Positions 23,121 to 36,089 of a stretch of DNA of 64,000 nt are shown here, piece by piece. Source of the DNA: a virus (taxonomy: Duplodnaviria; Heunggongvirae; Uroviricota; Caudoviricetes); IMG/VR virus record IMGVR_UViG_651053022_000004, positions 1 through 64,000 of that record; one strand, 5' to 3'. The notes beneath the pieces are model-generated. The model was not told where the DNA came from, did not search any database, and saw only the letters and a list, made by a program, of their open reading frames with translations. Positions within the stretch are counted from its first letter, which is position 1, and each line of letters opens with the position of its first letter. The translations under genes and the position numbers were made by a program.

Positions 23121-23474
23121 GTGGCTGATTTCGATAACCTGTTCGATGCTGCCATTGTCCGCGCCGATGAAACGATACGCGGGTACATGGGAACGTCAGC
23201 CACCATGACATCCGGTGAGCAGTCCGGCGCAGTAATACGTGGTGTTTTTGATGACCCTGAAAATATCAGCTATGCCGGACAGGGCGTGCGCGTTGAAGGC
23301 TCCAGCCCGTCCCTGTTTGTCCGGACTGATGATGTGCGGCAGCTGCGGCGCGGCGACACGCTGACCATCGGTGAGGAAAACTTCTGGATAGACCGGATTT
23401 CGACGGATGATGGCGGAAGCTGTCATCTCTGGCTTGGGCGTGGCGTGCCGCCTGCCGTTAACCGTCGTCGCTGA
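23121..23474 (+). CDS. FII: Head-tail connector protein FII
   Basis: 117-aa translation (MADFDNLFDAAIVRADETIRGYMGTSATMTSGEQSGAV...) matches lambda FII. Confidence 0.95.
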   Translation: MADFDNLFDAAIVRADETIRGYMGTSATMTSGEQSGAVIRGVFDDPENISYAGQGVRVEGSSPSLFVRTDDVRQLRRGDTLTIGEENFWIDRISTDDGGSCHLWLGRGVPPAVNRRR

Positions 23475-23485
23475 AGGGGGGATGT

Positions 23486-24064
23486 ATGGCCATAAAAGGT
23501 CTTGAGCAGGCCGTTGAAAACCTCAGCCGTATCAGCAGAACGGCGGTGCCCGGTGCCGCCGCAATGGCCATTAACCGCGTTGCTTCATCCGCGATATCGC
23601 AGTCGGCGTCACAGGTTGCCCGTGAGACAAAGGTACGCCGGAAACTGGTAAAGGAAAGGGCCAGGCTGAAAAGGGCCACGGTCAAAAATCCGCAGGCCAG
23701 AATCAAGGTTAACCGGGGGGATTTGCCCGTAATCAGGCTGGGTAACGCGCGGGTTGTCCTGTCCCGACGCAGGCGTCGTAAAAAGGGGCAGCGTTCATCC
23801 CTGAAAGGTGGCGACAGCGTGCTTGTGGTGGGAAACCGTCGTATTCCCGGCGCGTTTATTCAGCAACTGAAAAATGGCCGATGGCATGTCATGCAGCGTG
23901 TGGCCGGGAAAAACCGTTACCCCATTGATGTGGTGAAAATCCCGATGGCAGTGCCGCTGACCACGGCGTTTAAACAGAATATTGAGCGGATACGGCGTGA
24001 ACGTCTTCCGAAAGAGCTGGGCTATGCGCTGCAGCATCAACTGAGGATGGTAATAAAGCGATGA
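23486..24064 (+). CDS. Z: Tail terminator/completion protein Z
   Basis: 192-aa translation (MAIKGLEQAVENLSRISRTAVPGAAAMAINRVASSAISQ...) matches lambda Z. Confidence 0.95.
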   Translation: MAIKGLEQAVENLSRISRTAVPGAAAMAINRVASSAISQSASQVARETKVRRKLVKERARLKRATVKNPQARIKVNRGDLPVIRLGNARVVLSRRRRRKKGQRSSLKGGDSVLVVGNRRIPGAFIQQLKNGRWHVMQRVAGKNRYPIDVVKIPMAVPLTTAFKQNIERIRRERLPKELGYALQHQLRMVIKR

Positions 24065-24456
24065 AACATACAGAACTCCGTGCAGCCGTACTGGATGCAC
24101 TGGAAAAACATGACACCGGGGCGACGCTTTTTGATGGTCGCCCCGCTGTTTTTGATGAGGAGGATTTTCCGGCAGTTGCCGTTTATCTCACCGGCGCTGA
24201 ATACACGGGCGAAGAGCTGGACAGCGATACCTGGCAGGCGGAGCTGCATATTGAAGTTTTCCTGCCTGCTCAGGTGCCGGATTCAGAGCTGGATTCGTGG
24301 ATGGAGTCCCGGATTTATCCGGTGATGAGCGATGTCCCGGCACTGTCAGATTTGATCACCAGTATGGTGGCCAGTGGCTATGACTACCGGCGCGACGATG
24401 ATGCGGGCCTGTGGAGTTCAGCCGATCTGACTTATGTCATTACCTATGAAATGTGA
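24061..24456 (+). CDS. U: Tail tube terminator U
   Basis: 131-aa translation ([43 protein letters not shown]...) matches lambda U. Confidence 0.95.
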
Positions 24457-24463
24457 GGACGAT

Positions 24464-25204
24464 ATGCCTGTACCAAATCCAGTAATGCCGGTGAAAGGGG
24501 CCGGGACCACCCTGTGGGTTTATAAGGGGAACGGTGACCCTTATGCGAACCCGCTTTCAGACGTTGACTGGTCGCGTCTGGCTAAAGTTAAAGACCTGAC
24601 GCCCGGCGAACTGAGCGCTGAGTCCTATGACGACAGCTATCTCGATGATGAAGATGCGGACTGGACTGCGACCGGGCAGGGGCAGAAATCTGCCGGAGAT
24701 ACCAGCTTCACGCTGGCGTGGATGCCCGGAGAGCAGGGGCAGCAGGCGCTGCTGGCGTGGTTTAATGAAGGGGATACCCGTGCCTATAAAATCCGCTTCC
24801 CGAACGGCACGGTCGATGTGTTCCGCGGCTGGGTCAGCAGTATCGGTAAGGCGGTGACGGCGAAGGAAGTGATCACCCGCACGGTGAAAGTCACCAACGT
24901 GGGACGTCCGTCGATGGCAGAAGATCGCAGCACGGTGACGGCGACAACCGGCATGACGGTGACACCCGCCAGTGCTTCCGTAGTGAAAGGGCAGAGCACT
25001 ACGCTGACCGTGGCATTCCAGCCGGAGGGCGCAACCGACAAGAGCTTCCGTGCGGTGTCTGCGGATAAAACAAAAGCCACCGTGTCGGTCAGCGGTATGA
25101 CCATCACCGTGAACGGCGTTGCTGCAGGCAAGGTCAACATTCCGGTTGTATCCGGTAATGGTGAGTTTGCTGCGGTTGCAGAAATCACCGTCACCGCCAG
25201 TTAA
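24464..25204 (+). CDS. V: Major tail tube protein V
   Basis: Translation from [42 protein letters not shown]... matches lambda V. Confidence 0.95.
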
Positions 25205-25219
25205 TCCGGAGAGTCAGCG

Positions 25220-25642
25220 ATGTTCCTGAAAACCGAATCATTTGAATATAACGGCGTGACCGTCACGCTTTCTGAACTGTCAGCCCTGCAGCGTATTGAG
25301 CATCTTGCCCTGATGAAACGGCAGGCAGAACCGGCGGGATCCGACAGCAACCGGCAGGTTACTGTGGAAGACGTCATCAGAACCGGCGCGTTTCTGGTGG
25401 CGATGTCCCTGTGGCATAACCATCCGAAGAAGACGCAGATGCCGTCCATGAATGAAGCCGTTAAACAGATTGAGCAGGAAGTGCTTACCACCTGGCCCAC
25501 AGAGGCAATTTCTCATGCTGAAAACGTGGTGTACCGGCTGTCCGGTATGTATGAGTTTGTGGTGAATAATGCCCCCGAACAGGCAGAGGACGCCGGGCCT
25601 GCAGAGCCTGTTTCTGCGGGAAAGTGTTCGACGGTGAGCTGA
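25220..25642 (+). CDS. G: Tail assembly chaperone G
   Basis: 140-aa translation (MFLKTESFEYNGVTVTLSELSALQRIEHLALMKRQAEPAGSD...) matches lambda G. Confidence 0.95.
   Translation: MFLKTESFEYNGVTVTLSELSALQRIEHLALMKRQAEPAGSDSNRQVTVEDVIRTGAFLVAMSLWHNHPKKTQMPSMNEAVKQIEQEVLTTWPTEAISHAENVVYRLSGMYEFVVNNAPEQAEDAGPAEPVSAGKCSTVS
25618..25624 (+). other. Programmed -1 frameshift slippery heptamer G GGA AAG for G-T fusion
   Basis: Heptamer gggaaag near the 3' end of G; the -1 frame continues as the T ORF. Confidence 0.85.
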
Positions 25643-26058
25643 GTTTTGCCCTGAAACTGGCGCGTGAGATGGGGCGACCCGACTGGCGTGCCATGCTTGC
25701 CGGGATGTCATCCACGGAGTATGCCGACTGGCACCGCTTTTACAGTACCCATTATTTTCATGATGTTCTGCTGGATATGCACTTTTCCGGGCTGACGTAC
25801 ACCGTGCTCAGCCTGTTTTTCAGCGATCCGGATATGCATCCGCTGGATTTCAGTCTGCTGAACCGGCGCGAGGCTGACGAAGAGCCTGAAGATGATGTGC
25901 TGATGCAGAAAGCGGCAGGGCTTGCCGGAGGTGTCCGCTTTGGCCCGGACGGGAATGAAGTTATCCCCGCTTCCCCGGATGTGGCGGACATGACGGAGGA
26001 TGACGTAATGCTGATGACAGTATCAGAAGGGATCGCAGGAGGAGTCCGGTATGGCTGA
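25624..26058 (+). CDS. T: T segment of the G-T tail assembly chaperone (made by -1 frameshift from G)
   Basis: -1-frame ORF (…FDGELSFALKLAREMGRPDWRAMLAGMSSTEYADWHRFYS...) matches lambda T. Confidence 0.9.
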   Translation: MFDGELSFALKLAREMGRPDWRAMLAGMSSTEYADWHRFYSTHYFHDVLLDMHFSGLTYTVLSLFFSDPDMHPLDFSLLNRREADEEPEDDVLMQKAAGLAGGVRFGPDGNEVIPASPDVADMTEDDVMLMTVSEGIAGGVRYG

Positions 26059-28612
26059 ACCGGTAGGCGATCTGGTCGTTGATTTGAGTCTGGATGCGGC
26101 CAGATTTGACGAGCAGATGGCCAGAGTCAGGCGTCATTTTTCCGGTACGGAAAGTGATGCGAAAAAAACAGCGGCAGTCGTTGAACAGTCGCTGAGCCGA
26201 CAGGCGCTGGCTGCACAGAAAGCGGGGATTTCCGTCGGGCAGTATAAAGCCGCCATGCGTATGCTGCCTGCACAGTTCACCGACGTGGCCACGCAGCTTG
26301 CAGGCGGGCAAAGTCCGTGGCTGATCCTGCTGCAACAGGGGGGGCAGGTGAAGGACTCCTTCGGCGGGATGATCCCCATGTTCAGGGGGCTTGCCGGTGC
26401 GATCACCCTGCCGATGGTGGGGGCCACCTCGCTGGCGGTGGCGACCGGTGCGCTGGCGTATGCCTGGTATCAGGGCAACTCAACCCTGTCCGATTTCAAC
26501 AAAACGCTGGTCCTTTCCGGCAATCAGGCGGGTCTGACGGCAGATCGTATGCTGGTCCTGTCCAGAGCCGGGCAGGCGGCAGGGCTGACGTTTAACCAGA
26601 CCAGCGAGTCACTCAGCGCACTGGTTAAGGCGGGGGTAAGCGGTGAGGCTCAGATTGCGTCCATCAGCCAGAGTGTGGCGCGTTTCTCCTCTGCATCCGG
26701 CGTGGAGGTGGACAAGGTCGCTGAAGCCTTCGGGAAGCTGACCACAGACCCGACGTCGGGGCTGACGGCGATGGCACGCCAGTTCCATAACGTGACGGCG
26801 GAGCAGATTGCGTATGTTGCTCAGTTGCAGCGTTCCGGCGATGAAGCCGGGGCATTGCAGGCGGCGAACGAGGCCGCAACGAAAGGGTTTGATGACCAGA
26901 CCCGCCGCCTGAAAGAGAACATGGGCACGCTGGAGACCTGGGCAGACAGGACTGCGCGGGCATTCAAATCCATGTGGGATGCGGTGCTGGATATTGGTCG
27001 TCCTGATACCGCGCAGGAGATGCTGATTAAGGCAGAGGCTGCGTTTAAGAAAGCAGACGACATCTGGAATCTGCGCAAGGATGATTATTTTGTTAACGAT
27101 GAAGCGCGGGCGCGTTACTGGGATGATCGTGAAAAGGCCCGTCTTGCGCTTGAAGCCGCCCGAAAGAAGGCTGAACAGCAGAGTCAACAGGACAAAAATG
27201 CGCAGCAGCAGAGCGATACCGAAGCGTCACGGCTGAAATATACCGAAGAGGCGCAGAAGGCTTACGAACGGCTGCAGACGCCGCTGGAGAAATATGCCGC
27301 CCGTCAGGAAGAACTGAATAAGGCCCTGAAAGACGGAAAAATCCTGCAGGCAGATTACAACACGCTGATGGCGGCAGCGAAAAAGGACTATGAAACGACA
27401 CTGAAAAAGCCGAAGCAGTCCGGCGTGAAGGTGTCTGCGGGCGATCGTCAGGAAGACAGTGCTCATGCTGCCCTGCTGACGCTTCAGGCTGAACTCCGGA
27501 CGCTGGAGAAGCATGCCGGAGCAAATGAGAAAATCAGCCAGCAGCGCCGGGATTTGTGGAAGGCGGAGAGTCAGTTCGCGGTACTGGAGGAGGCGGCGCA
27601 ACGTCGCCAGCTGTCTGTACAGGAGAAATCCCTGCTGGCGCATAAAGATGAGACGCTGGAGTACAAACGCCAGCTGGCTGCACTTGGCGACAAGGTTACG
27701 TATCAGGAGCGCCTGAACGCGCTGGCGCAGCAGGCGGATAAATTCGCACAGCAGCAACGGGCAAAACGGGCCGCCATTGATGCGAAAAGCCGGGGGCTGA
27801 CTGACCGGCAGGCAGAACGGGAAGCCACGGAACAGCGCCTGAAGGAACAGTATGGCGATAATCCGCTGGCGCTGAATAACGTCATGTCAGAGCAGAAAAA
27901 GACCTGGGCGGCTGAAGACCAGCTTCGCGGGAACTGGATGGCAGGCCTGAAGTCCGGCTGGAGTGAGTGGGAAGAGAGCGCCACGGACAGTATGTCGCAG
28001 GTAAAAAGTGCAGCCACGCAGACCTTTGATGGTATTGCACAGAATATGGCGGCGATGCTGACCGGCAGTGAGCAGAACTGGCGCAGCTTCACCCGTTCCG
28101 TGCTGTCCATGATGACAGAAATTCTGCTTAAGCAGGCAATGGTGGGGATTGTCGGGAGTATCGGCAGCGCCATTGGCGGGGCTGTTGGTGGCGGCGCATC
28201 CGCGTCAGGCGGTACAGCCATTCAGGCCGCTGCGGCGAAATTCCATTTTGCAACCGGAGGATTTACGGGAACCGGCGGCAAATATGAGCCAGCGGGGATT
28301 GTTCACCGTGGTGAGTTTGTCTTCACGAAGGAGGCAACCAGCCGGATTGGCGTGGGGAATCTTTACCGGCTGATGCGCGGCTATGCCACCGGCGGTTATG
28401 TCGGTACACCGGGCAGCATGGCAGACAGCCGGTCGCAGGCGTCCGGGACGTTTGAGCAGAATAACCATGTGGTGATTAACAACGACGGCACGAACGGGCA
28501 GATAGGTCCGGCTGCTCTGAAGGCGGTGTATGACATGGCCCGCAAGGGTGCCCGTGATGAAATTCAGACACAGATGCGTGATGGTGGCCTGTTCTCCGGA
28601 GGTGGACGATGA
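26051..28612 (+). CDS. H: Tape measure protein H
   Basis: 853-aa translation (MAEPVGDLVVDLSLDAARFDEQMARVRRHFSGTESDAKK...) matches lambda H. Confidence 0.97.
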   Translation: MAEPVGDLVVDLSLDAARFDEQMARVRRHFSGTESDAKKTAAVVEQSLSRQALAAQKAGISVGQYKAAMRMLPAQFTDVATQLAGGQSPWLILLQQGGQVKDSFGGMIPMFRGLAGAITLPMVGATSLAVATGALAYAWYQGNSTLSDFNKTLVLSGNQAGLTADRMLVLSRAGQAAGLTFNQTSESLSALVKAGVSGEAQIASISQSVARFSSASGVEVDKVAEAFGKLTTDPTSGLTAMARQFHNVTAEQIAYVAQLQRSGDEAGALQAANEAATKGFDDQTRRLKENMGTLETWADRTARAFKSMWDAVLDIGRPDTAQEMLIKAEAAFKKADDIWNLRKDDYFVNDEARARYWDDREKARLALEAARKKAEQQSQQDKNAQQQSDTEASRLKYTEEAQKAYERLQTPLEKYAARQEELNKALKDGKILQADYNTLMAAAKKDYETTLKKPKQSGVKVSAGDRQEDSAHAALLTLQAELRTLEKHAGANEKISQQRRDLWKAESQFAVLEEAAQRRQLSVQEKSLLAHKDETLEYKRQLAALGDKVTYQERLNALAQQADKFAQQQRAKRAAIDAKSRGLTDRQAEREATEQRLKEQYGDNPLALNNVMSEQKKTWAAEDQLRGNWMAGLKSGWSEWEESATDSMSQVKSAATQTFDGIAQNMAAMLTGSEQNWRSFTRSVLSMMTEILLKQAMVGIVGSIGSAIGGAVGGGASASGGTAIQAAAAKFHFATGGFTGTGGKYEPAGIVHRGEFVFTKEATSRIGVGNLYRLMRGYATGGYVGTPGSMADSRSQASGTFEQNNHVVINNDGTNGQIGPAALKAVYDMARKGARDEIQTQMRDGGLFSGGGR

Positions 28613-28938
28613 AGACCTTCCGCTGGAAAGTGAAACCCGGTATGGATGTGGCTTCGGTCCCTTCTGTAAGAAAGGTGCGCTTTGGTGATGGCTATTCTCA
28701 GCGAGCGCCTGCCGGGCTGAATGCCAACCTGAAAACGTACAGCGTGACGCTTTCTGTCCCCCGTGAGGAGGCCACGGTACTGGAGTCGTTTCTGGAAGAG
28801 CACGGGGGCTGGAAATCCTTTCTGTGGACGCCGCCTTATGAGTGGCAGCAGATAAAGGTGACCTGCGCAAAATGGTCGTCGCGGGTCAGTATGCTGCGTG
28901 TTGAGTTCAGCGCAGAGTTTGAACAGGTGGTGAACTGA
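28609..28938 (+). CDS. M: Minor tail protein M
   Basis: 109-aa translation (MKTFRWKVKPGMDVASVPSVRKVRFGDGYSQRAPAGLNANLKTY...) matches lambda M. Confidence 0.95.
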   Translation: MKTFRWKVKPGMDVASVPSVRKVRFGDGYSQRAPAGLNANLKTYSVTLSVPREEATVLESFLEEHGGWKSFLWTPPYEWQQIKVTCAKWSSRVSMLRVEFSAEFEQVVN

Positions 28939-29636
28939 TGCAGGATATCCGGCAGGAAACACTGAATGAATGCACCCGTGCGGAGCAGTCGGCCAGCGTG
29001 GTGCTCTGGGAAATCGACCTGACAGAGGTCGGTGGAGAACGTTATTTTTTCTGTAATGAGCAGAACGAAAAAGGTGAGCCGGTCACCTGGCAGGGGCGAC
29101 AGTATCAGCCGTATCCCATTCAGGGGAGCGGTTTTGAACTGAATGGCAAAGGCACCAGTACGCGCCCCACGCTGACGGTTTCTAACCTGTACGGTATGGT
29201 CACCGGGATGGCGGAAGATCTGCAGAGTCTGGTCGGCGGAACGGTGGTCCGGCGTAAGGTTTACGCCCGTTTTCTGGATGCGGTGAACTTCGTCAACGGA
29301 AACAGTTATGCCGATCCGGAGCAGGAGGTGATCAGCCGCTGGCGCATTGAGCAGTGCAGCGAACTGAGCGCGGTGAGTGCCTCCTTTGTACTGTCCACGC
29401 CGACGGAAACGGATGGCGCTGTTTTTCCGGGACGTATCATGCTGGCCAACACCTGCACCTGGACCTATCGCGGTGACGAGTGCGGTTATAGCGGTCCGGC
29501 TGTCGCGGATGAATATGACCAGCCAACGTCCGATATCACGAAGGATAAATGCAGCAAATGCCTGAGCGGTTGTAAGTTCCGCAATAACGTCGGCAACTTT
29601 GGCGGCTTCCTTTCCATTAACAAACTTTCGCAGTAA
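28938..29636 (+). CDS. L: Minor tail protein L
   Basis: 232-aa translation (MQDIRQETLNECTRAEQSASVVLWEIDLTEVGGERYFFCNE...) matches lambda L. Confidence 0.95.
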   Translation: MQDIRQETLNECTRAEQSASVVLWEIDLTEVGGERYFFCNEQNEKGEPVTWQGRQYQPYPIQGSGFELNGKGTSTRPTLTVSNLYGMVTGMAEDLQSLVGGTVVRRKVYARFLDAVNFVNGNSYADPEQEVISRWRIEQCSELSAVSASFVLSTPTETDGAVFPGRIMLANTCTWTYRGDECGYSGPAVADEYDQPTSDITKDKCSKCLSGCKFRNNVGNFGGFLSINKLSQ

Positions 29637-29640
29637 TCCC

Positions 29641-30069
29641 ATGACACAGACAGAATCAGCGATTCTGGCGCACGCCCGGCGATGTGCGCCAGCGGAGTCG
29701 TGTGGCTTCGTGGTGAGAACGCCGAAGGGGGAAAGATATTTTCCCTGCGTGAATATCTCCGGTGAGCCGGAGGCGTATTTCCGGATGTCGCCGGAGGACT
29801 GGCTGCGGGCAGAGATGCAGGGTGAGATTGTGGCGCTGGTCCACAGCCACCCCGGTGGTCTGCCCTGGCTGAGTGAGGCTGACAGGCGGCTGCAGGTGCA
29901 GAGTGATTTGCCGTGGTGGCTGGTCTGCCGGGGGGCGATTCATAAGTTCCGCTGTGTGCCGCATCTTACCGGGCGGCGCTTTGAGCACGGGGTGACGGAC
30001 TGTTACACGCTGTTCCGGGATGCTTATCATCTGGCGGGGATAAACCATAGAGCAGAATTATTTTTCTGA
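29641..30069 (+). pseudogene. K: Tail tip assembly protein K, truncated at a junction after codon ~133
   Basis: Product matches the full-length K paralogue at 49661-50404 up to ...TLFRDAYHLAG, then diverges to INHRAELFF-stop in AT-rich sequence. Confidence 0.85.
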
Positions 30070-30237
30070 TGTTGTTTATTGTTTATTTAAATGCAGGGTG
30101 GTTTATATCTCGTCTTGTAGTTTATCCATGCATATCTGCTTGATAATCAGGTTTTTATTTAAGGTATGGTTTTGTGTTTTTTCTGTATTACATGTCAGGT
30201 ATTTTAAAGAATCATTTTTCAGATGGTGGAAAGAACC

Positions 30238-30426
30238 ATGGCATTTAAACACTATGATGTTGTCAGGGCGGCGTCGCCGTCAGATCTTGCGGAAAAGCTG
30301 ACACATAAACTGAAAGAGGGCTGGCAGCCGTTTGGTAGTCCGGTGGCCATAACCCCTTATACCCTGATGCAGGCGATTGCAGCAGAAGGTGATGTGGTGG
30401 TCAGTGGTGCAACTGAGCCGGAGTGA
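30238..30426 (+). CDS. DUF1737-like small protein typical of lambdoid late regions
   Basis: 62-aa product MAFKHYDVVRAASPSDLAEKLTHKLKEGWQPFGSPVAITPYTLMQAIAAEGDVVVSGATEPE; assignment from recollection of proteins encoded upstream of holins. Confidence 0.45.
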   Translation: MAFKHYDVVRAASPSDLAEKLTHKLKEGWQPFGSPVAITPYTLMQAIAAEGDVVVSGATEPE

Positions 30427-30669
30427 TACTACGTCATCGTACTGGCCCGGCATTCTAGGCCATAAAGGACAGTCTGGCAGTGGGACTAAATGCACTGACG
30501 CTGACGGATATTACCAAAAATGCAACGTATGGCGTTGAGATAGAAAGTCTGGTGCTGGAGATAAATGTACCGGCATCATCATAAAAAGTGAGCCAGTCAA
30601 ATGGAAGGTATCGTTAAACTCACCGGTAGTGTCAGTGGGTCGTCTGAGATGCCTGCATGAGTTATCAGA

Positions 30670-30699
30670 GCCATCAGTACTTAACTGGTGGCTTTTTTT
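30670..30699 (+). terminator. Candidate late-leader terminator upstream of the holin
   Basis: Hairpin gccatcagtacttaactggtggc followed by a T-run. Confidence 0.45.
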
Positions 30700-30734
30700 A
30701 TTGTTGTCAGCTTCCGGATAACGGGAGACGGGGT

Positions 30735-30950
30735 ATGGACCAGATGGAAAAAATCACAACAGGTGTGTCATACACCACGTCAGCGGTGGGAACGGGCTAC
30801 TGGTTCCTGCAGTTGCTGGACAGGGTTTCCCCGTCTCAGTGGGCGGCAATAGGCGTGCTGGGGAGTCTGCTGTTTGGGCTGCTGACATATCTGACTAACC
30901 TGTATTTCAAAATCAGAGAGGACCGTCGTAAGGCGGCACGGGGAGAGTAA
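30735..30950 (+). CDS. Class II holin, S21-like pinholin (start at internal ATG)
   Basis: 71-aa product [71 protein letters not shown], two TM segments; resembles phage 21 S as I recall it. Confidence 0.8.
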
Positions 30951-30954
30951 TTCA

Positions 30955-31305
30955 ATGACTCAAAACTATGAACTGATTGTGAAAGGGATCCGCAATTTTG
31001 AGAATAAAGTTACGGTAACTTTAGCGTTACGGGACAAAAAACGCTTTGACGGTGAAATTTTTGACCTGGACATCTCGCTGGACCGTGTTGAAGGTGCCGC
31101 GCTGGAGTTTTATGAGGCAGCAGCCAGAAGGAGCATCAGACAGGTCTTCCTGGATGTTGCTGCCGCGTTATGTGAAGGGGATGAGCAGTCGCCGGAAAAG
31201 CGCCCCGTAATTTTAGAGGCGCAGAATGTATGGATAACCTACAAAGGAAAGCTACCGGGAAGAATTACTGGTTCTCTGAAGACTCCTCCGGAATCACAAC
31301 CTTAA
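30955..31305 (+). CDS. Chimeric ORF: YdfR-like (DUF1327-like) N-terminus fused to a duplicated segment
   Basis: 116 aa; N-terminal ~73 aa resemble the small protein found between holin and endolysin in some lambdoid prophages; the last ~39 codons are the segment repeated at 32087-32205. Confidence 0.4.
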   Translation: MTQNYELIVKGIRNFENKVTVTLALRDKKRFDGEIFDLDISLDRVEGAALEFYEAAARRSIRQVFLDVAAALCEGDEQSPEKRPVILEAQNVWITYKGKLPGRITGSLKTPPESQP

Positions 31306-31339
31306 GTCACTGACCGGAACAGATAAACCTGTCCGTGGG

Positions 31340-31867
31340 GCAAAAATCAGATACGGCCTGTCGGCTGCCGTTCTGGCACTGATTGCCGTCGGTGCGCCCG
31401 CGCCTGATATTCTCGACCAGTTTCTGGATGAAAAAGAAGGTAACCACACAACGGCATACCGCGATGGGTCCGGCATCTGGACCATCTGTCGGGGGGCCAC
31501 GATGGTGGATGGAAAACCCGTTTTTCCCGGTATGAAACTGTCGAAGGAAAAATGCGACCAGGTCAACGCCATTGAGCGTGATAAGGCGCTGGCATGGGTG
31601 GAGCGCAATATTAAAGTACCACTGACCGAACCACAAAAAGCGGGTATAGCGTCATTCTGTCCCTATAACATTGGCCCCGGTAAGTGTTTCCCGTCGACGT
31701 TTTATAAGCGGCTGAATGCCGGTGATCGTAAGGGCGCATGCGAGGCGATTCGCTGGTGGATAAAAGATGGTGGGCGCGATTGCCGCATACGTTCAAATAA
31801 CTGCTATGGACAGGTTATTCGTCGTGACCAGGAAAGCGCATTAGCCTGTTGGGGGATAGAGCAGTGA
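31340..31867 (+). pseudogene. SAR-endolysin (lysozyme-like) copy A lacking a start codon
   Basis: Colinear with the intact copy at 32547-33080 from its third codon on, but the upstream in-frame sequence has no ATG/GTG/TTG before the catalytic region; only an internal ATG at 31502. Confidence 0.65.
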
Positions 31868-32268
31868 GCAGAGTCGCCGCGATTATTTATGCTTTGGTTA
31901 TCTGCATCATCGTCTGCCTGTCGTGGGCGGTCAATCATTACCGTGATAACGCCATCGCCTACAAAGAACAGCGTGATAAAAAAGTCAGTGAGCTGAAGCA
32001 GTCGATCGCCACCATCGCTGACATGCAGCAGCGTCAGCGTGATGTTGCTGCACTCGATGCAAAGTACTCGAGAGAATTAGCCAATGCGAAAGTCGCCGGA
32101 AAAGCGCCCCGTAATTTTAGAGGCGCAGGATGTGTTGATAACCTACAGAGGAAAACTACCGGGAATAATTACGGGTTCTCTGAAGAGTCCGCCGAAATGG
32201 TAATTTTACCAGCATATTTTTCATCCAGTAATACAGCAAGCCGCCTGAAAGAGTCTTGTTGTTCCTGA
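31864..32268 (+). pseudogene. Rz-like spanin 5' fragment (about 75 codons) fused to the duplicated segment
   Basis: [40 protein letters not shown]... is Rz-like up to ...ELANAK, then continues into the 32087-32205 repeat in an unrelated frame. Confidence 0.6.
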
Positions 32269-32441
32269 GACCATTTGGGATTGCATGATTCAAACTGGAT
32301 TGATGCCAGCGTTGATTGCATCTGTTCCCTTGGAATTGAGAATGCCAGATATGAGAAGGCGACGGTAAGGGTATTCACGTCTTCCCGAAGCCTGGAAATG
32401 CTGTCGAGCAACTCCTGTAGAGAAATGGTGTTATTGTCCAT
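32169..32441 (-). CDS. Hypothetical protein
   Basis: 90-aa minus-strand ORF between the duplicated segment and endolysin copy B; its last ~12 codons lie in the repeat. Confidence 0.3.
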
Positions 32442-32546
32442 AAATAATCCTCATGATTGTATTGACCTGTTAGCAGCCTGAGGCAACAGGCTGGAACTGA
32501 TAAACATATCCAGGGCTCAGAAACCGATAAATCCTGATAAATATCC

Positions 32547-33080
32547 ATGAACGCAAAAATCAGATACGGCCTGTCGGCTGCCGTTCTGGCGCTGATTGCC
32601 GCTGGTGCGCCTGCGCCTGACATTCTCGACCAGTTTCTGGATGAAAAGGAAGGTAACCACACCACGGCATACCGTGATGGCGCGGGTATCTGGACCATCT
32701 GCCGCGGTGCCATCCTGGTGGATGGCAAACCTGTCGTTCCGGGCATGAAGTTGTCGAAGGAAAAATGCGACCGGGTTAACGCCATTGAGCGTGATAAGGC
32801 GCTGGCATGGGTGGAGAAAAACATCAAAGTGCCATTGACCGAACCCCAGAAAGCGGGGATCGCGTCATTCTGTCCGTACAACATTGGTCCCGGTAAGTGT
32901 TTCCCGTCGACGTTTTACAGACGAATTAATGCAGGTGATCGCAGGGGAGCATGCGAAGCGATTCGCTGGTGGATTAAGGACGGTGGCAGAGACTGCCGTA
33001 TTCGCTCAAATAACTGTTACGGTCAGGTATTCCGTCGTGACCAGGAGAGCGCGCTGGCGTGCTGGGGAATCGACAGATAA
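32547..33080 (+). CDS. SAR endolysin (lysozyme-like), intact copy B
   Basis: 177 aa with N-terminal signal-anchor-release-like segment (MNAKIRYGLSAAVLALIAAGAPAP) and E...D...T catalytic-triad spacing (DEKEGNHTTAYRDGAGIWTI). Confidence 0.8.
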   Translation: MNAKIRYGLSAAVLALIAAGAPAPDILDQFLDEKEGNHTTAYRDGAGIWTICRGAILVDGKPVVPGMKLSKEKCDRVNAIERDKALAWVEKNIKVPLTEPQKAGIASFCPYNIGPGKCFPSTFYRRINAGDRRGACEAIRWWIKDGGRDCRIRSNNCYGQVFRRDQESALACWGIDR

Positions 33081-33172
33081 GCAGAATATTTTGCTGAAAA
33101 ATGAGGTTGGCCAACGCGGGCGGATAACACGAAGTCCTGTGAACTGGCAAAACCTAAGTGAATAAAAGTAAA

Positions 33173-33210
33173 AACCCCGTTTGTTGGCAGCAAGCGGGGT
33201 TTTGTTTTTA
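33173..33210 (+). terminator. Candidate terminator downstream of endolysin copy B
   Basis: Hairpin ccccgtttg...caagcgggg followed by ttttgttttt. Confidence 0.5.
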
Positions 33211-33274
33211 TGGCAGTAAGCTATGGGAGGCTGCCTTGATTGATTTTAGCAAACTGATTAGGGAGTTGCGACTC

Positions 33275-33370
33275 ATGATTAGTCAATTACCAAACTGGAA
33301 ATTTTTGCTGGTCTGGAGCATCCCTTTTTTATGGGTAGTATCCCAGTTAATTGTGGCAATTAAGGGGTAG
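33275..33370 (+). CDS. Small hydrophobic peptide ORF 1
   Basis: 31 codons (MISQLPNWKFLLVWSIPFLWVVSQLIVAIKG), one predicted TM helix. Confidence 0.3.
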   Translation: MISQLPNWKFLLVWSIPFLWVVSQLIVAIKG

Positions 33371-33372
33371 CT

Positions 33373-33504
33373 ATGTCAGACAAACTCATAACGCCGGCAA
33401 AGGTCCTGTGTGTGATTGTCGGTATTTCATTTTCACTAATGCTGGTTGCTCTTTTTCTGTCCCTCGCCTGGGTGATGTTGTCTTCGTCGGGGCTGCTGGG
33501 GTGA
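33373..33504 (+). CDS. Small hydrophobic peptide ORF 2
   Basis: 43 codons (MSDKLITPAKVLCVIVGISFSLMLVALFLSLAWVMLSSSGLLG); GGGG motif 7 nt upstream of the ATG. Confidence 0.4.
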   Translation: MSDKLITPAKVLCVIVGISFSLMLVALFLSLAWVMLSSSGLLG

Positions 33505-33623
33505 CAGTGACTGATGACATCAGCAGAGCGCTGGCTTTTGCTATTAAGTGGGTGGCTGTTGGTATTGCTGTGTCTCCGATGCTGTATGGGCTGGCAAAAC
33601 TGGTCATTGCGCTGAAATCGTGA
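33501..33623 (+). CDS. Small hydrophobic peptide ORF 3 (GTG start assumed)
   Basis: 40 codons (…DDISRALAFAIKWVAVGIAVSPMLYGLAKLVIALKS); shares an RA(L/M)AFAI(K/R) motif with ORF 4. Confidence 0.35.
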   Translation: MTVTDDISRALAFAIKWVAVGIAVSPMLYGLAKLVIALKS

Positions 33624-33634
33624 ACTTTAAAAAG

Positions 33635-33721
33635 ATGAGTGCTGAACTTATTCGGGCAATGGCATTTGCCATTCGTATTGTGGCCATTGCTGTTCTGGTC
33701 TGGGCAATCCGTTGGTGGTGA
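33635..33721 (+). CDS. Small hydrophobic peptide ORF 4
   Basis: 28 codons ([28 protein letters not shown]); paralogous to ORF 3 with synonymous-site differences. Confidence 0.35.
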
Positions 33722-33722
33722 T

Positions 33723-34217
33723 ATGAACCGTGTTCTGTGTGTGGTGATTATTGTCATGCTGGTAGCCTGTGGTGTGCTTAGTCTGGGGCTGAATCATTAC
33801 CGCGATAACGCCATCACCTACAAAGCGCAGCGCGATAAAAAAGTCAGTGAGCTGAAACTGGCGAATGCCACTATTACTGACATGCAGCAGCGCCAGCGAG
33901 ATGTCGCTGCGCTTGATGCCAGATACACGAAGGAATTAGCCGATGCGAGAGCTGAAAATGAAACTCTGCGCGCTGATGTTGCCGCTGGTCGTAAGCGCCT
34001 GCGGGTCAACGCCACCTGCCCCGGTACCGTGCGTGAAGCCACCGGCACCTCCAGCGTGGATAATGCAACCGGCCCCCGACTGGCAGACACCGCTGAACGG
34101 GATTATTTCATCCTCAGAGAACGGTTGATGACAATGCAGAAGCAGCTGGAAGGGGCGCAGGAATATATCCGCACTCAGTGCACTAAGCTGGCTTTTTATT
34201 ATCCGGAGGATACATGA
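33723..34217 (+). CDS. Rz-like inner-membrane spanin, copy B (intact)
   Basis: Start at [21 protein letters not shown]...; Rz-like coiled-coil region; contains an embedded Rz1-like ORF. Confidence 0.8.
33943..34128 (+). CDS. Rz1-like outer-membrane lipoprotein spanin, copy B
   Basis: 61-aa ORF ([39 protein letters not shown]...) embedded in Rz in the +1 frame. Confidence 0.8.
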
Positions 34218-34429
34218 AGAAATTACGGGTAACCGTAGAACCTTTTCAGGGAACAATTCCGTTCCGTATTTTGCAGCGTGGTCGTGTTCTTGTTGAAGGT
34301 TCGTTCAGTGGTAAATGTACGCAATTACACTCCCGGACCTTTCAGGTGAATGCCACGAATGAAGAGCTAACCGTGGAGTGTACGATGAATGCCGCTAAAT
34401 GCCGCATGGTATTACAGCCAGTGTGTTGA
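34214..34429 (+). CDS. Hypothetical protein
   Basis: 71-aa ORF overlapping the Rz stop; no recognisable motif. Confidence 0.25.
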
Positions 34430-34450
34430 GCGACCTTATTATCCATGCGC

Positions 34451-34621
34451 GGTATTGTCGCCGTATTCCTGCATTAACAGAGACCGCAGCCCGACAGGGA
34501 GACTCCTCTGCGCGAGTGTGCGGGGATAATCAAAAACGATACACACCGGGGTTTACCGCGTTAACGGAGCGCGGCGTTGTCCCCTCATAGTCGCCTGTCC
34601 GGTGCGATGGTGGAAGAAACC
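34451..34621. repeat. Repeat R2, copy B
   Basis: Aligns with 14126-14281; nested stems conserved with compensatory changes. Confidence 0.75.
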
Positions 34622-34627
34622 GAACGT

Positions 34628-34828
34628 TCATTTCTCGTTATTTGTCATGCTGGCCGGGCGCAGATGCGTTGCATCTGTTGCCAGCCTTCTCCTGCAGGCT
34701 TCAATAACCCACGCTGAAAAGTTACCGGACCCTTTATGCTCAAGGGCGATGTTGATCTGTTCAATTATGTGATTGGGGAAACGGATATTGCGGGTTGTGG
34801 TTCTGCGGGTCCGGTTTTTCGATGACAT
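34628..34828 (-). CDS. Ribbon-helix-helix (Arc/CopG-like) DNA-binding protein (start at internal ATG)
   Basis: 66-aa product MSSKNRTRRTTTRNIRFPNHIIEQINIALEHKGSGNFSAWVIEACRRRL...; basic N-terminus followed by strand-helix-helix-like pattern. Confidence 0.45.
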   Translation of the reverse strand: MSSKNRTRRTTTRNIRFPNHIIEQINIALEHKGSGNFSAWVIEACRRRLATDATHLRPASMTNNEK

Positions 34829-34869
34829 ATTTATTTCCTTTACTGATTGCCATATGACGGGGATTTTAC

Positions 34870-35235
34870 ATGGCTGAGCTTCGTACACTCCAGAGCAGAA
34901 TCAAAACACTGAATACCCGACGGGTGAATATTCTGAAGGGGGAGCAGCGTCGTGTCAGTGGCAGTGCACGTGTTTCCCTCAAGCGTCATATCTGGCTGAG
35001 GGACGCCGGGCAGTGCTGTATCTGTGGTCGTGTGGTTGACCTCTGTGACAGTGAACTCGATCACCGAATTGCACTTCAGTTCGGTGGTGGTAATGAGGAG
35101 ACGAATCTTTGGACGCTCTGTGCCGAATGCCATCGACAAAAGTCTGCTCGTGAAGCGGCGAGTGGTATGCCGGACCCGACGCTGCCGGAGGTGTCCGGAG
35201 GTAGTGGCAGAGAGGACGACATCATCGGACTGTAA
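34870..35235 (+). CDS. HNH endonuclease upstream of a terminase small-subunit gene
   Basis: 121 aa with Cys-x-x-Cys ... DHRIALQFGG ... N ... CAECH motif arrangement typical of phage HNH nucleases. Confidence 0.8.
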   Translation: MAELRTLQSRIKTLNTRRVNILKGEQRRVSGSARVSLKRHIWLRDAGQCCICGRVVDLCDSELDHRIALQFGGGNEETNLWTLCAECHRQKSAREAASGMPDPTLPEVSGGSGREDDIIGL

Positions 35236-35326
35236 CCCAACCCGGGGGGGGTATCATCCGGCGTAAAAAACGATCGCTTTGGACACCGCGCCCCCTCTCA
35301 CGCAGAGAAAAAATTCCCGTTTCAGG

Positions 35327-35455
35327 GCAGTTAACATGTTAACTGGCTGCCCGGGCATTTTTGCGGTTTTTATCTTTATTATTCAGTTTGTTGTGCGGAA
35401 AAAATGTTAACAGGCTTTTTCAGCAAATGTTAACCAGGCAGCAGTTAACATTTGC
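35327..35455. promoter_or_regulatory. Cluster of five ATGTTAAC/GTTAACAT octamers upstream of terS (candidate terminase recognition site)
   Basis: gcagttaacatgttaactggc, aaaatgttaacagg, caaatgttaaccagg, gcagttaacatttgc within ~130 bp. Confidence 0.4.
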
Positions 35456-35525
35456 GGCATGAGACGCCGGGAAAAATGGGCTGAACCATACCCGGCTGAG
35501 TGCGTTCTGGACCCGGGAGGAGGCT

Positions 35526-36089
35526 GTGCTGACAACGCAAAAACGAAAATTTGCGCTGGCGCTCATGTCCGGGAAAAACAAAACAGCGTCAGCCATTGCC
35601 GCCGGTTATTCGGCGAAGACCGCCAGGGTTAAAGGCTCGCAGCTGGCAAAAGATCCTGAGGTGCTTGCGTTTATAGCCCGTAAACAATGCGAGACGGTGG
35701 AGGTGGATGAGGTTCCTGTTTACCGGCAGAAAAAATCAGAGCAGGAGGATAAACCCCGTCGCCGTGAGGCGGCTGCAATACCACAGCCGGACGAAAACAA
35801 TCTGGAGATGCCACCGTCCGCGGTGATGTCTCCTGGTATTGAATATATGGAGGATGGTCTTCCCGATCCGGTGAAAGCCATGGGGCGGATCCTGGTGGAA
35901 AACCTCTGCATTGATCCGAAACTGGCACTGGATGCGGCCTGGCGTCTGGCGCAGTTCACGCACCATAAAAAAGGGGATACCGGGAAAAAATCGGCAAAAG
36001 GTGATGCCGCGAAAAAAGCGGCTAACCGTTTTGCGGTGCCACCGCCCCCCCGACTGGTGGTGAATAACGATAATGAGGGCAACGGATGA
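35526..36089 (+). CDS. Terminase small subunit
   Basis: 187-aa ORF directly upstream of and overlapping the large terminase gene; N-terminal HTH-like region. Confidence 0.75.
   Translation: MLTTQKRKFALALMSGKNKTASAIAAGYSAKTARVKGSQLAKDPEVLAFIARKQCETVEVDEVPVYRQKKSEQEDKPRRREAAAIPQPDENNLEMPPSAVMSPGIEYMEDGLPDPVKAMGRILVENLCIDPKLALDAAWRLAQFTHHKKGDTGKKSAKGDAAKKAANRFAVPPPPRLVVNNDNEGNG

Follow-up and report, generated by a model that had tools for sequence, protein, structure and literature searches.

The lysis cassettes of phages of Gram-negative bacteria are usually taught as a set of holin, endolysin, and spanin. Recent work demonstrates that small membrane proteins beyond this set can be essential as well. 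One example is the releasin of phage Mu, gp25 (DUF2730), required in Mu for the release of the signal-anchor-release (SAR) endolysin (PMC9239132), and another is Lcc6 of Shewanella LambdaSo, a protein of 65 amino acids (aa) required for pinholin-dependent lysis (bioRxiv 10.1101/2024.01.23.576932). Both are small proteins with a single transmembrane domain (TMD), stand outside the (pin)holin, SAR-endolysin, and spanin set, and act at the cytoplasmic membrane. Here we describe a cluster of four consecutive short open reading frames (ORFs) for small predicted membrane peptides, located between the endolysin gene R and the i-spanin gene Rz in a 64,000-nucleotide (nt) stretch of caudoviral DNA (positions 1 to 64,000 of the IMG/VR virus record IMGVR_UViG_651053022_000004, hereafter the window), and we consider what these peptides may do.

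A described protein that occupies a comparable position is LysA of phage P2, which, as is predicted of the peptides, is a membrane protein, encoded by a late gene in the slot between the endolysin (K) and the spanin (lysB) genes, and which is annotated as 'nonessential; affects timing of lysis'. LysA differs in that its gene, at 426 bp, is much larger than those of the single-helix peptides of 28-60 aa, and no sequence relationship between the two was detected (no Pfam match for the peptides). The likeness to Lcc6 and gp25 has its limits as well: the gene of Lcc6 is remote from those for lysis, and the protein possesses a 43-aa cytoplasmic tail, whereas the tails of the window peptides are very short; the window peptides, unlike Mu gp25, have no match to DUF2730 (Pfam, E<=1); and the families to which they belong also occur with non-SAR endolysins, unlike the setting of Lcc6 and gp25.

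The PHROG profiles sort the four ORFs, all present on the plus strand where the sequence-only reading of the window had placed them, into three families, here termed A, B, and C, all of 'unknown function'. ORF1 (family A, phrog_6632) extends over 33275-33370 in a 31-aa form with an ATG start, and over 33236-33370 in a 44-aa form with a TTG start, the more probable of the two. ORF2 (family B, phrog_4906; RefSeq WP_001280935.1) occupies 33373-33504 and encodes 43 aa. ORF3 (family C, phrog_1115/3246/4493; WP_042004856.1) occupies 33501-33623, with a GTG start and 40 aa, and ORF4 (family C, phrog_4493, E=3.8e-6; WP_032140280.1) occupies 33635-33721 and encodes 28 aa. Each of the four is, accordingly, matched by a small-protein profile (6632, 4906, and 1115/4493). 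The best 19-residue Kyte-Doolittle means of the four peptides are 1.9-2.9, so that the single transmembrane helix claimed for each holds as far as a hydrophobic stretch in all of them, being less certain for ORF4, in which this stretch is only ~18 residues long and has an Arg embedded in it. When the sequence was shuffled 1000 times with its dinucleotides preserved, four or more hydrophobic ORFs in a chain had P=0.015 and equal coverage P=0.007, but conservation is much stronger evidence for genes than this test.

The frames are conserved across E. coli genomes and phage records, as the sequence-only reading would have them if they were genes. The pairwise share of synonymous differences was compared in each of the six frames across alleles, these being partly chosen for intact frames and in many cases from clonal loci. 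In family A, the synonymous fraction is 0.35 in the annotated frame versus 0.12-0.28 in the other five. In family B, represented by 30 distinct alleles, the annotated frame is 35% synonymous and free of stops, versus 12-25% in the other frames. In family C, the annotated frame reaches 0.35 and its mirror antisense frame 0.29, versus 0.04-0.07 in the remaining four. The substitutions, too, are mildest in the annotated frame in all three families. The selection on the frames that had been proposed agrees with these values, the annotated frame having the highest synonymous fraction in each family, and by this comparison the ORFs are conserved coding sequences, beyond chance. The Nei-Gojobori pN/pS of family B is 0.25-0.7 (window, IMG/VR, Shiga toxin (Stx) phage, and divergent alleles). 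On the minus strand, the mirror frame of the peptides contains a 123-aa ORF (33386-33757) that covers ORF2 to ORF4 and reaches into the beginning of Rz; it was rejected as a real gene, as the forward frames have the higher synonymous fraction and the milder substitutions, and as the gene order it would require is not conserved.

ORF2 is the core member of the cluster. It matches phrog_4906 over positions 7-49 of 49 (E=4.5e-21), and AlphaFold2 predicts one helix, at residues 3-38 (pLDDT 85). The protein clusters of family B number more than 100 and are 60-98% identical, with a length that is almost without exception 43 aa, and in them G17, F20, S21, M23, V25, and W33 are invariant. It is present in 1702 of the 5426 complete E. 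coli genomes (31%), a single genome having as many as 11 copies. It is also present, in full length throughout, in 276 phage records, including most of the Stx1 and Stx2 phages. In most of the Stx-phage records listed, the gene is intact yet carries no annotation. Examples are presented by phi24B, Min27, and P13374, where it fills a 153-nt 'gap' between ant and Rz (unannotated genes at 2201-2329 of locus L218, 2201-2329 of L219, and 2483-2632 of L090, respectively); in these three phages, the first in-frame ATG of B overlaps the ant stop codon, and the gene ends 7-11 nt before Rz. In 120 B-carrying IMG/VR loci, B is located between R and Rz in every architecture, the most common being R-C-B-Rz (~50 loci) and R-A-B-C-C-Rz, the window type (~42 loci), with R-B-Rz, R-A-B-Rz, R-Ant-A-B-Rz, and R-Ant-A-B-C-C-Rz also represented. 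In the loci found, the family is confined to lysis cassettes and is almost always directly before Rz. A B that has diverged to 60% identity is found together with a C after a GH108 endolysin, the two being retained as a pair in a cassette with other holins and no recognizable Rz. In the E. coli prophage loci of this type (L086-L088, 2600-3500), holin_8, holin_3_7, the GH108 endolysin, and a terminator are followed by a 65-aa C-terminally anchored protein, a 38-aa C, a 44-aa B, and a lipoprotein of 51-60 aa (phrog_7528), with no recognizable Rz/Rz1 ahead of the terminase genes; this is possibly a spanin-less or non-canonical cassette.

ORF1 combines the conserved N-terminal segment DFSKLIRELR with one hydrophobic helix. 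Its homologues are 45-aa proteins of the form M(I/V)DFSKLIRELR...LPNWKF...IRWW, found in E. coli, the Enterobacter cloacae complex, Citrobacter, Salmonella, and Cronobacter, with DFSKLIRELR invariant across the genera. The window encodes this conserved N-terminal part in frame, upstream of the ATG at 33275. The 44-aa form matches phrog_6632 over positions 1-43 of 45 (E=1e-13), and the 31-aa ATG form over positions 14-43 only (E=6e-5); the TTG at 33236 has a Shine-Dalgarno (SD) sequence, GGGAGG at 33225-33230, upstream at a 5-nt spacing. Most likely, the true start is this TTG, giving a peptide of 44 aa. The ORF extents given in the sequence-only reading do exist, but the one for ORF1 is likely too short, and the start of ORF3 is ambiguous (GTG at 33501 or 33507, the RefSeq model being 33468-33623). 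The contexts of family A were compared in 75 diverse IMG/VR loci. In 44 of these, the gene is directly upstream of an Rz-like i-spanin gene (with a 1-nt gap in 36), and 9 have other neighbours, contig ends, or partial copies. The spanin-linked loci are diverse both in their endolysins (PF00959, GH19, M15_4, CHAP, and transglycosylase) and in their spanins (phrog_13, 214, 1026/1275, and DUF2570+LysC).

ORF3 and ORF4 both match phrog_4493, 3246, and 1115, and intermediate sequences connect them; the paralogy that had been suggested by a shared motif is in agreement with these matches, by which the two are true paralogues of one family. The full-length family C protein is ~60 aa long, M-x-K-YKRILLRLTMKNGLELKAPVTDDISRA followed by a hydrophobic helix (phrog_1115 positions 8-67, E=1e-42), and AlphaFold2 predicts a short N-terminal helix plus a helix of 38 residues. 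Judged against this form, both window copies are shortened at the N-terminus. ORF3 matches phrog_1115 with E=6e-25 over positions 30-67 of 67 only and is without an SD of its own; it is an N-terminally shortened copy, linked to the 3' end of ORF2 by an apparent recombination junction. ORF4 matches positions 24-54 of 56 of phrog_4493 and is a short form (MSAELIRA...) of the subtype that ends in RWW, while ORF3 is of the type that ends in KS; all four pairings of a long or short N-terminus with a KS or RWW C-terminus exist. The last codons of ORF4, CGT TGG TGG TGA, end 1 nt before the Rz ATG. A 37-aa full-length counterpart of ORF4 is located directly 5' of Rz in the Stx-like phage GER2, as is a 49-aa RWW form in a Salmonella prophage remnant.

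Elsewhere, family C is found between a GH19 endolysin and two small lipoproteins. In one such myovirus contig (L224, 2903-4472), a GH19/PG_binding_1 endolysin gene is followed by genes for a 57-aa C with an RWW end and for lipoproteins of 59 and 54 aa, the latter directly 5' of the tail sheath gene, and no i-spanin-like gene was seen. The possibility that a TM peptide and a lipoprotein form a minimal spanin in loci of the L086 and L224 types was rejected, the periplasmic parts being too short and the same lipoprotein following a normal Rz in L165. Among 1.84 billion representative proteins, a profile search recovered only 14 relatives of family C, none of them a holin, and profile-seeded pattern scans of one genome per species (185,579 species) recovered no relatives. 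In a single 554-nt metagenome contig (L220), the N-terminus of a holin continues in frame into the C-terminal portion of a family C protein, followed by B-C-C, with ~10-nt microhomology at the junction (CAGTGGGNGGC); this chimera is either a natural deletion from holin TMD2 through R or an artefact.

Families A and C are linked by the design of the cassettes. The A and C genes, whether in lysis, baseplate, or tail contexts, share a 5' module that consists of a GC-rich hairpin with a U-tract (consensus AAAACCCCG...CGGGGTTTT), a leader with a strong SD (consensus TTTCTG(C)ACCTTGA..A.GGCAAGGGAGAA), and the start codon. The consensus hairpin folds with 13 pairs, 5 of them with compensatory changes. 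In the window, a GC-rich, terminator-like hairpin with a T-tract is present on the plus strand at 33171-33213, 3' of the endolysin gene, with a 15-pair stem plus T-run. The hairpins that precede A and C genes elsewhere, in 9 contexts, align with it, and it belongs to the shared set, while its leader has diverged; this hairpin is the 5' boundary of the peptide-spanin module. The position after a terminator and before Rz, as originally described, is confirmed by this hairpin and by the start of Rz at 33723. At the 3' end, A and C often terminate in RWW-TGA, with the next ATG (of Rz, DUF2570, or a baseplate wedge gene) 1-3 nt on. We infer that CGN-TGG-TGG-TGA may serve as a built-in re-initiation or SD-like site, by which a cassette could enter an operon without polar effects. 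A and C are mobile cassettes with a portable 5' module.

The genes from ORF1 to Rz are tightly packed, the spacings being +2 nt for ORF1/ORF2, -4 nt for ORF2/ORF3 (a GTGA overlap), +11 nt for ORF3/ORF4, and +1 nt for ORF4/Rz. No sigma-70-like promoter is found on the plus strand between the hairpin and the start codon, and the region has no more promoter-like matches than chance would give (8 versus 6.1 +/- 2.6 expected), with one weak match on the minus strand (33379-33350), antisense to ORF1. Rfam has no match at E<=1 in 30000-36000 on either strand. As the cluster apparently has no promoter of its own, its expression should depend on late transcription that is resistant to terminators. In lambdoid phages, Q antitermination drives late transcription past terminators.

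The junction of R and Rz is a common slot for accessory genes: it is filled in 31% of the complete E. coli genomes, and in P2 it is filled by lysA. The position of the cluster, which had been regarded as one not occupied in canonical lysis cassettes, is not unusual in this respect. For A and C, too, the usual site is between an endolysin and an i-spanin gene, whatever the endolysin or spanin family.

Putting these observations together, we propose, with even confidence, that the four ORFs represent late-transcribed, translationally coupled, mobile inner-membrane peptide cassettes, of which lysis modulation would be the likeliest function. In such a scenario, the peptides would be made only from the Q-antiterminated late transcript, along with the holin, the endolysin, and the spanins; their translation would be coupled along the chain that runs into Rz; they would insert into the cytoplasmic membrane as single helices; and they would exert a non-essential modulation of the membrane steps of lysis, which may be pinholin triggering, endolysin release, or the insertion or activity of the i-spanin, with ORF3 and ORF4 perhaps being weakened or decaying copies. 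The tight gaps and overlaps from ORF1 to Rz, without a promoter after the hairpin, support the operon coupling, and the location of A, B, and often C directly upstream of i-spanins, amid unrelated endolysin and spanin families, supports the link to lysis. The peptides do not appear to be holins, antiholins, or spanins themselves: they have no Pfam or NCBIfam holin match, they are 28-44 aa long with at most ~10 residues beyond the helix and no lipobox, and genuine Rz and Rz1 genes are located downstream. That the peptides modulate lysis specifically we would rate as somewhat less probable than the proposal as a whole, short of even. More doubtful still is the idea that A, B, and C make up an unrecognized 'pre-spanin' class of plug-in cassettes, with the hairpin-leader at the 5' end and RWW-TGA, for re-initiation, at the 3' end, that would set the timing or the efficiency of spanins or pinholins. 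Such a class would be one more functional component of the lysis cassettes of Enterobacteriaceae, those of nearly all Stx phages among them, and through lysis it would govern when phage and Shiga toxin are released.

A number of observations weigh against this proposal. The coding constraint is real but moderate, not strong: the raw count of variable sites by codon position in family B, less informative than the pairwise comparison of frames and pN/pS, is 23:24:26, with no third-position excess, and stops or frameshifts are present in some alleles. In Qin of E. coli K-12, R adjoins Rz, the slot is empty, and the peptides are absent; in phages lambda and 21, the slot is not known to be filled and the peptides are not known to occur. 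From these absences, the peptides are dispensable. The gap between R and Rz also takes an unrelated antirepressor gene (ant). In 22 of the 75 loci, family A is found between a GpV-like baseplate spike gene and a baseplate wedge gene of P2-like phages, and family C is found between tail-tube and chaperone genes and after tail-fibre/esterase genes; this presence in baseplate and tail operons weakens the case for a lysis role made from position. The holins, endolysins, and spanins with which the peptides are found are many and unrelated, and a single specific protein partner is for this reason less likely. Two potential clues to function were also lost. The first was the possibility that C imitates or descends from pinholin TMD2, prompted by the resemblance of KWVAVGIAVSPMLYGL to this domain and by a holin::C chimera (P0062); with an S21-like holin TMD2, hhalign aligned 17 columns at a probability of 1.6% (P=0.03), in a codon-shuffle DNA test against pinholin TMD2 the resemblance was not significant (p=0.076), no holin was among the relatives recovered by the profile search, and the chimera is known from the one 554-nt contig. 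The second was the possibility of B being a duplicate of the N-terminal TMD of Rz (both have VLCV...MLVA...LSL), rejected with a non-significant DNA shuffle (p=0.15) and an hhalign alignment of 7 columns. Finally, no paper on these peptides was found in the lysis-cassette and small-protein literature or in the Sakai Ribo-seq supplements. Of the roles originally suggested, that of lysis-timing regulators persists as the most plausible single function, given the position next to i-spanins, with the reservation that A and C also reside in baseplate and tail operons.

A serious rival, if on our estimate an unlikely one, is that these are moron-type accessory peptides unrelated to lysis, which would guard either the lysogen or the cell under infection, perhaps through superinfection exclusion, or would alter the host membrane in some other way, the lysis cassette being merely a permissive site. 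Such a role would fit the occurrence of A and C at several late-operon junctions (spike-wedge, tail tube-chaperone, and after tail fibres), the portability of the 5' module, the GC content of the cluster (46.8% versus 54-55% for R and Rz), part of which is accounted for by T-rich hydrophobic codons, the GC3 of ORF2 (0.59) being like that of the neighbours, and the fact that the genes are extra DNA between genes that are adjacent in relatives, R and Rz in K-12 Qin, and V and W in P2, family A being the extra DNA between a spike and a wedge gene in the 22 loci. A precedent exists in HK97 gp15, a 62-aa single-TM moron product, which is a YebO-like superinfection-exclusion protein that blocks DNA entry (PMC3594210). 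Comparable to what is predicted for the families considered here, gp15 is an inner-membrane protein of ~60 aa with a single TM, and its gene is a small insert among those for late structural proteins; a C gene in locus L223 is located between the tail tube and chaperone genes, and gp15 occupies the neighbouring slot, between the chaperone and tape measure genes. This C is flanked by hairpins on both sides, comparable to the terminator after the HK97 gp15 moron. However, the TMD of gp15 is N-terminal and its cytoplasmic helix C-terminal, and the gene has a promoter of its own and is expressed from the prophage, whereas A and C are of the opposite polarity, with a cytoplasmic N-terminus and a C-terminal TMD, and have an upstream hairpin and no detectable promoter. 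With a terminator upstream and no promoter found, expression from a repressed prophage, which is among the traits that define a moron (Juhala/Hendrix), is unsupported. A downstream terminator is seen only in L223, while the window has none and its ORF4 abuts Rz. There are also no PADLOC defence and no Pfam YebO matches, and family B is found only inside lysis cassettes.

Less probable again, and by a clear step, is that the cluster is largely functionless recombination debris, its frames persisting because they deliver ribosomes to Rz by coupling, or because they are young. The region is highly mosaic, with a broken duplicate lysis cassette in the window; the truncation of ORF3 and ORF4 versus the ~60-aa form, the missing SD of ORF3 and its fusion to ORF2 at a recombination junction, the stops and frameshifts in some alleles, and an RWW-TGA end where selection appears to act on the nucleotides, for re-initiation, are all what debris would leave. 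Debris would not, on the other hand, be expected to conserve residues such as DFSKLIRELR in A and the six invariant positions in B, to be enriched in synonymous differences in the annotated frame, or to retain the pairing of a C with a B of only 60% identity in another type of cassette, one without Rz. Finally, the suggestion of type-I-toxin-like membrane peptides checked by antisense RNA, made in the sequence-only reading, is very improbable: while the products are small and hydrophobic, as are Hok, Ldr, Ibs, and TisB, some of which are prophage-borne, and while the weak minus-strand match antisense to ORF1 could be taken for a promoter, the peptides match no Rfam family and no Pfam toxin family, promoter-like matches are at chance level, no antisense element is conserved because gene order varies between relatives, and the four genes are packed and coupled in the Rz operon rather than forming a transcription unit of their own with an independent promoter or a long 5' untranslated region.

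The preferred interpretation of lysis modulation does not imply a new kind of system. The peptides are already catalogued as hypothetical proteins or as PHROGs of unknown function, and none of the three families has a match in Pfam (at E<=1), NCBIfam, or PADLOC. The cluster is an unstudied, widespread variant of the additional small membrane proteins that late or lysis operons encode, and its portable cassette design is unusual. In RefSeq, three of the four ORFs are already hypothetical proteins at the identical locus, and one phage record annotates all four. The 661-bp segment at 33100-33760 is at least 99% identical in 361 complete E. coli records, the top matches listed being identical.

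As to the P2-like loci, the cassette of one (L372, 2925-3145) and of 21 similar loci carries A with a terminator-like hairpin between the GpV-like spike and the wedge gene. The 117-aa gene 3' of A in these loci is a baseplate wedge subunit by PHROG, with no detectable BLASTP similarity to P2 gpW. P2 is not known to have a Q-type antiterminator. If such an antiterminator is lacking in these phages too, then the tolerance of a hairpin inside the baseplate operon, and the expression of the essential genes downstream, is puzzling.

The genes mark the region as a whole as a lysis cassette, that of a lambdoid prophage of E. coli. The endolysin gene R (32547-33080, plus strand) is identified by PF00959 (E=9e-24) and by phrog_7 (endolysin), and is the rrrQ lysozyme in the identical RefSeq locus; its product has an Ala/Gly-rich, signal-anchor-like segment at the N-terminus. 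Rz (33723-34217, plus strand; PF03245, E=4e-51; phrog_13) has the Rz1 o-spanin ORF embedded in it (33943-34128, plus strand), with a lipobox-like LVVSAC. A 71-aa ORF at 34214-34429, a RefSeq hypothetical protein, has an ATGA overlap with the Rz stop and is probably a fragment of a larger gene, as its match covers only positions 100-165 of the 291-position phrog_2571. A second, broken lysis cassette is located just upstream (30735-32203). It contains an S21-like holin gene (30735-30950), a YdfR-like gene (30955-31305), a copy of R (~31338-31867) with no in-frame start codon where the intact copy has its ATG, and a 5' fragment of a lambda-type Rz (from 31849) joined at ~32084 to the 3' end of a YdfR-like gene; this looks like unequal recombination between two cassettes. 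The window also contains two sets of late genes, one with lambda-like head and tail genes (16220-30069), ending in a truncated K-like gene at ~30069 that adjoins the lysis region, and a second terminase/capsid/tail set from 36086. No complete E. coli genome was found to have at least 80% of 29000-35000 in one place.

In conclusion, three uncharacterized families of small membrane peptides are encoded at the endolysin-spanin junction, one of which, family B, is present in about a third of the complete E. coli genomes and in most of the Stx phage records. Should the peptides be inert or be exclusion morons, annotations would still be corrected, with respect to the start of ORF1, the B gene of the Stx phages, and the truncated copies of C. 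The combination of the hairpin-leader at one end and RWW-TGA at the other suggests a route by which a tiny gene may enter essential operons without polar effects. If any of the peptides does tune lysis, then burst timing, prophage-mediated killing, and the release of Shiga toxin would all be affected.

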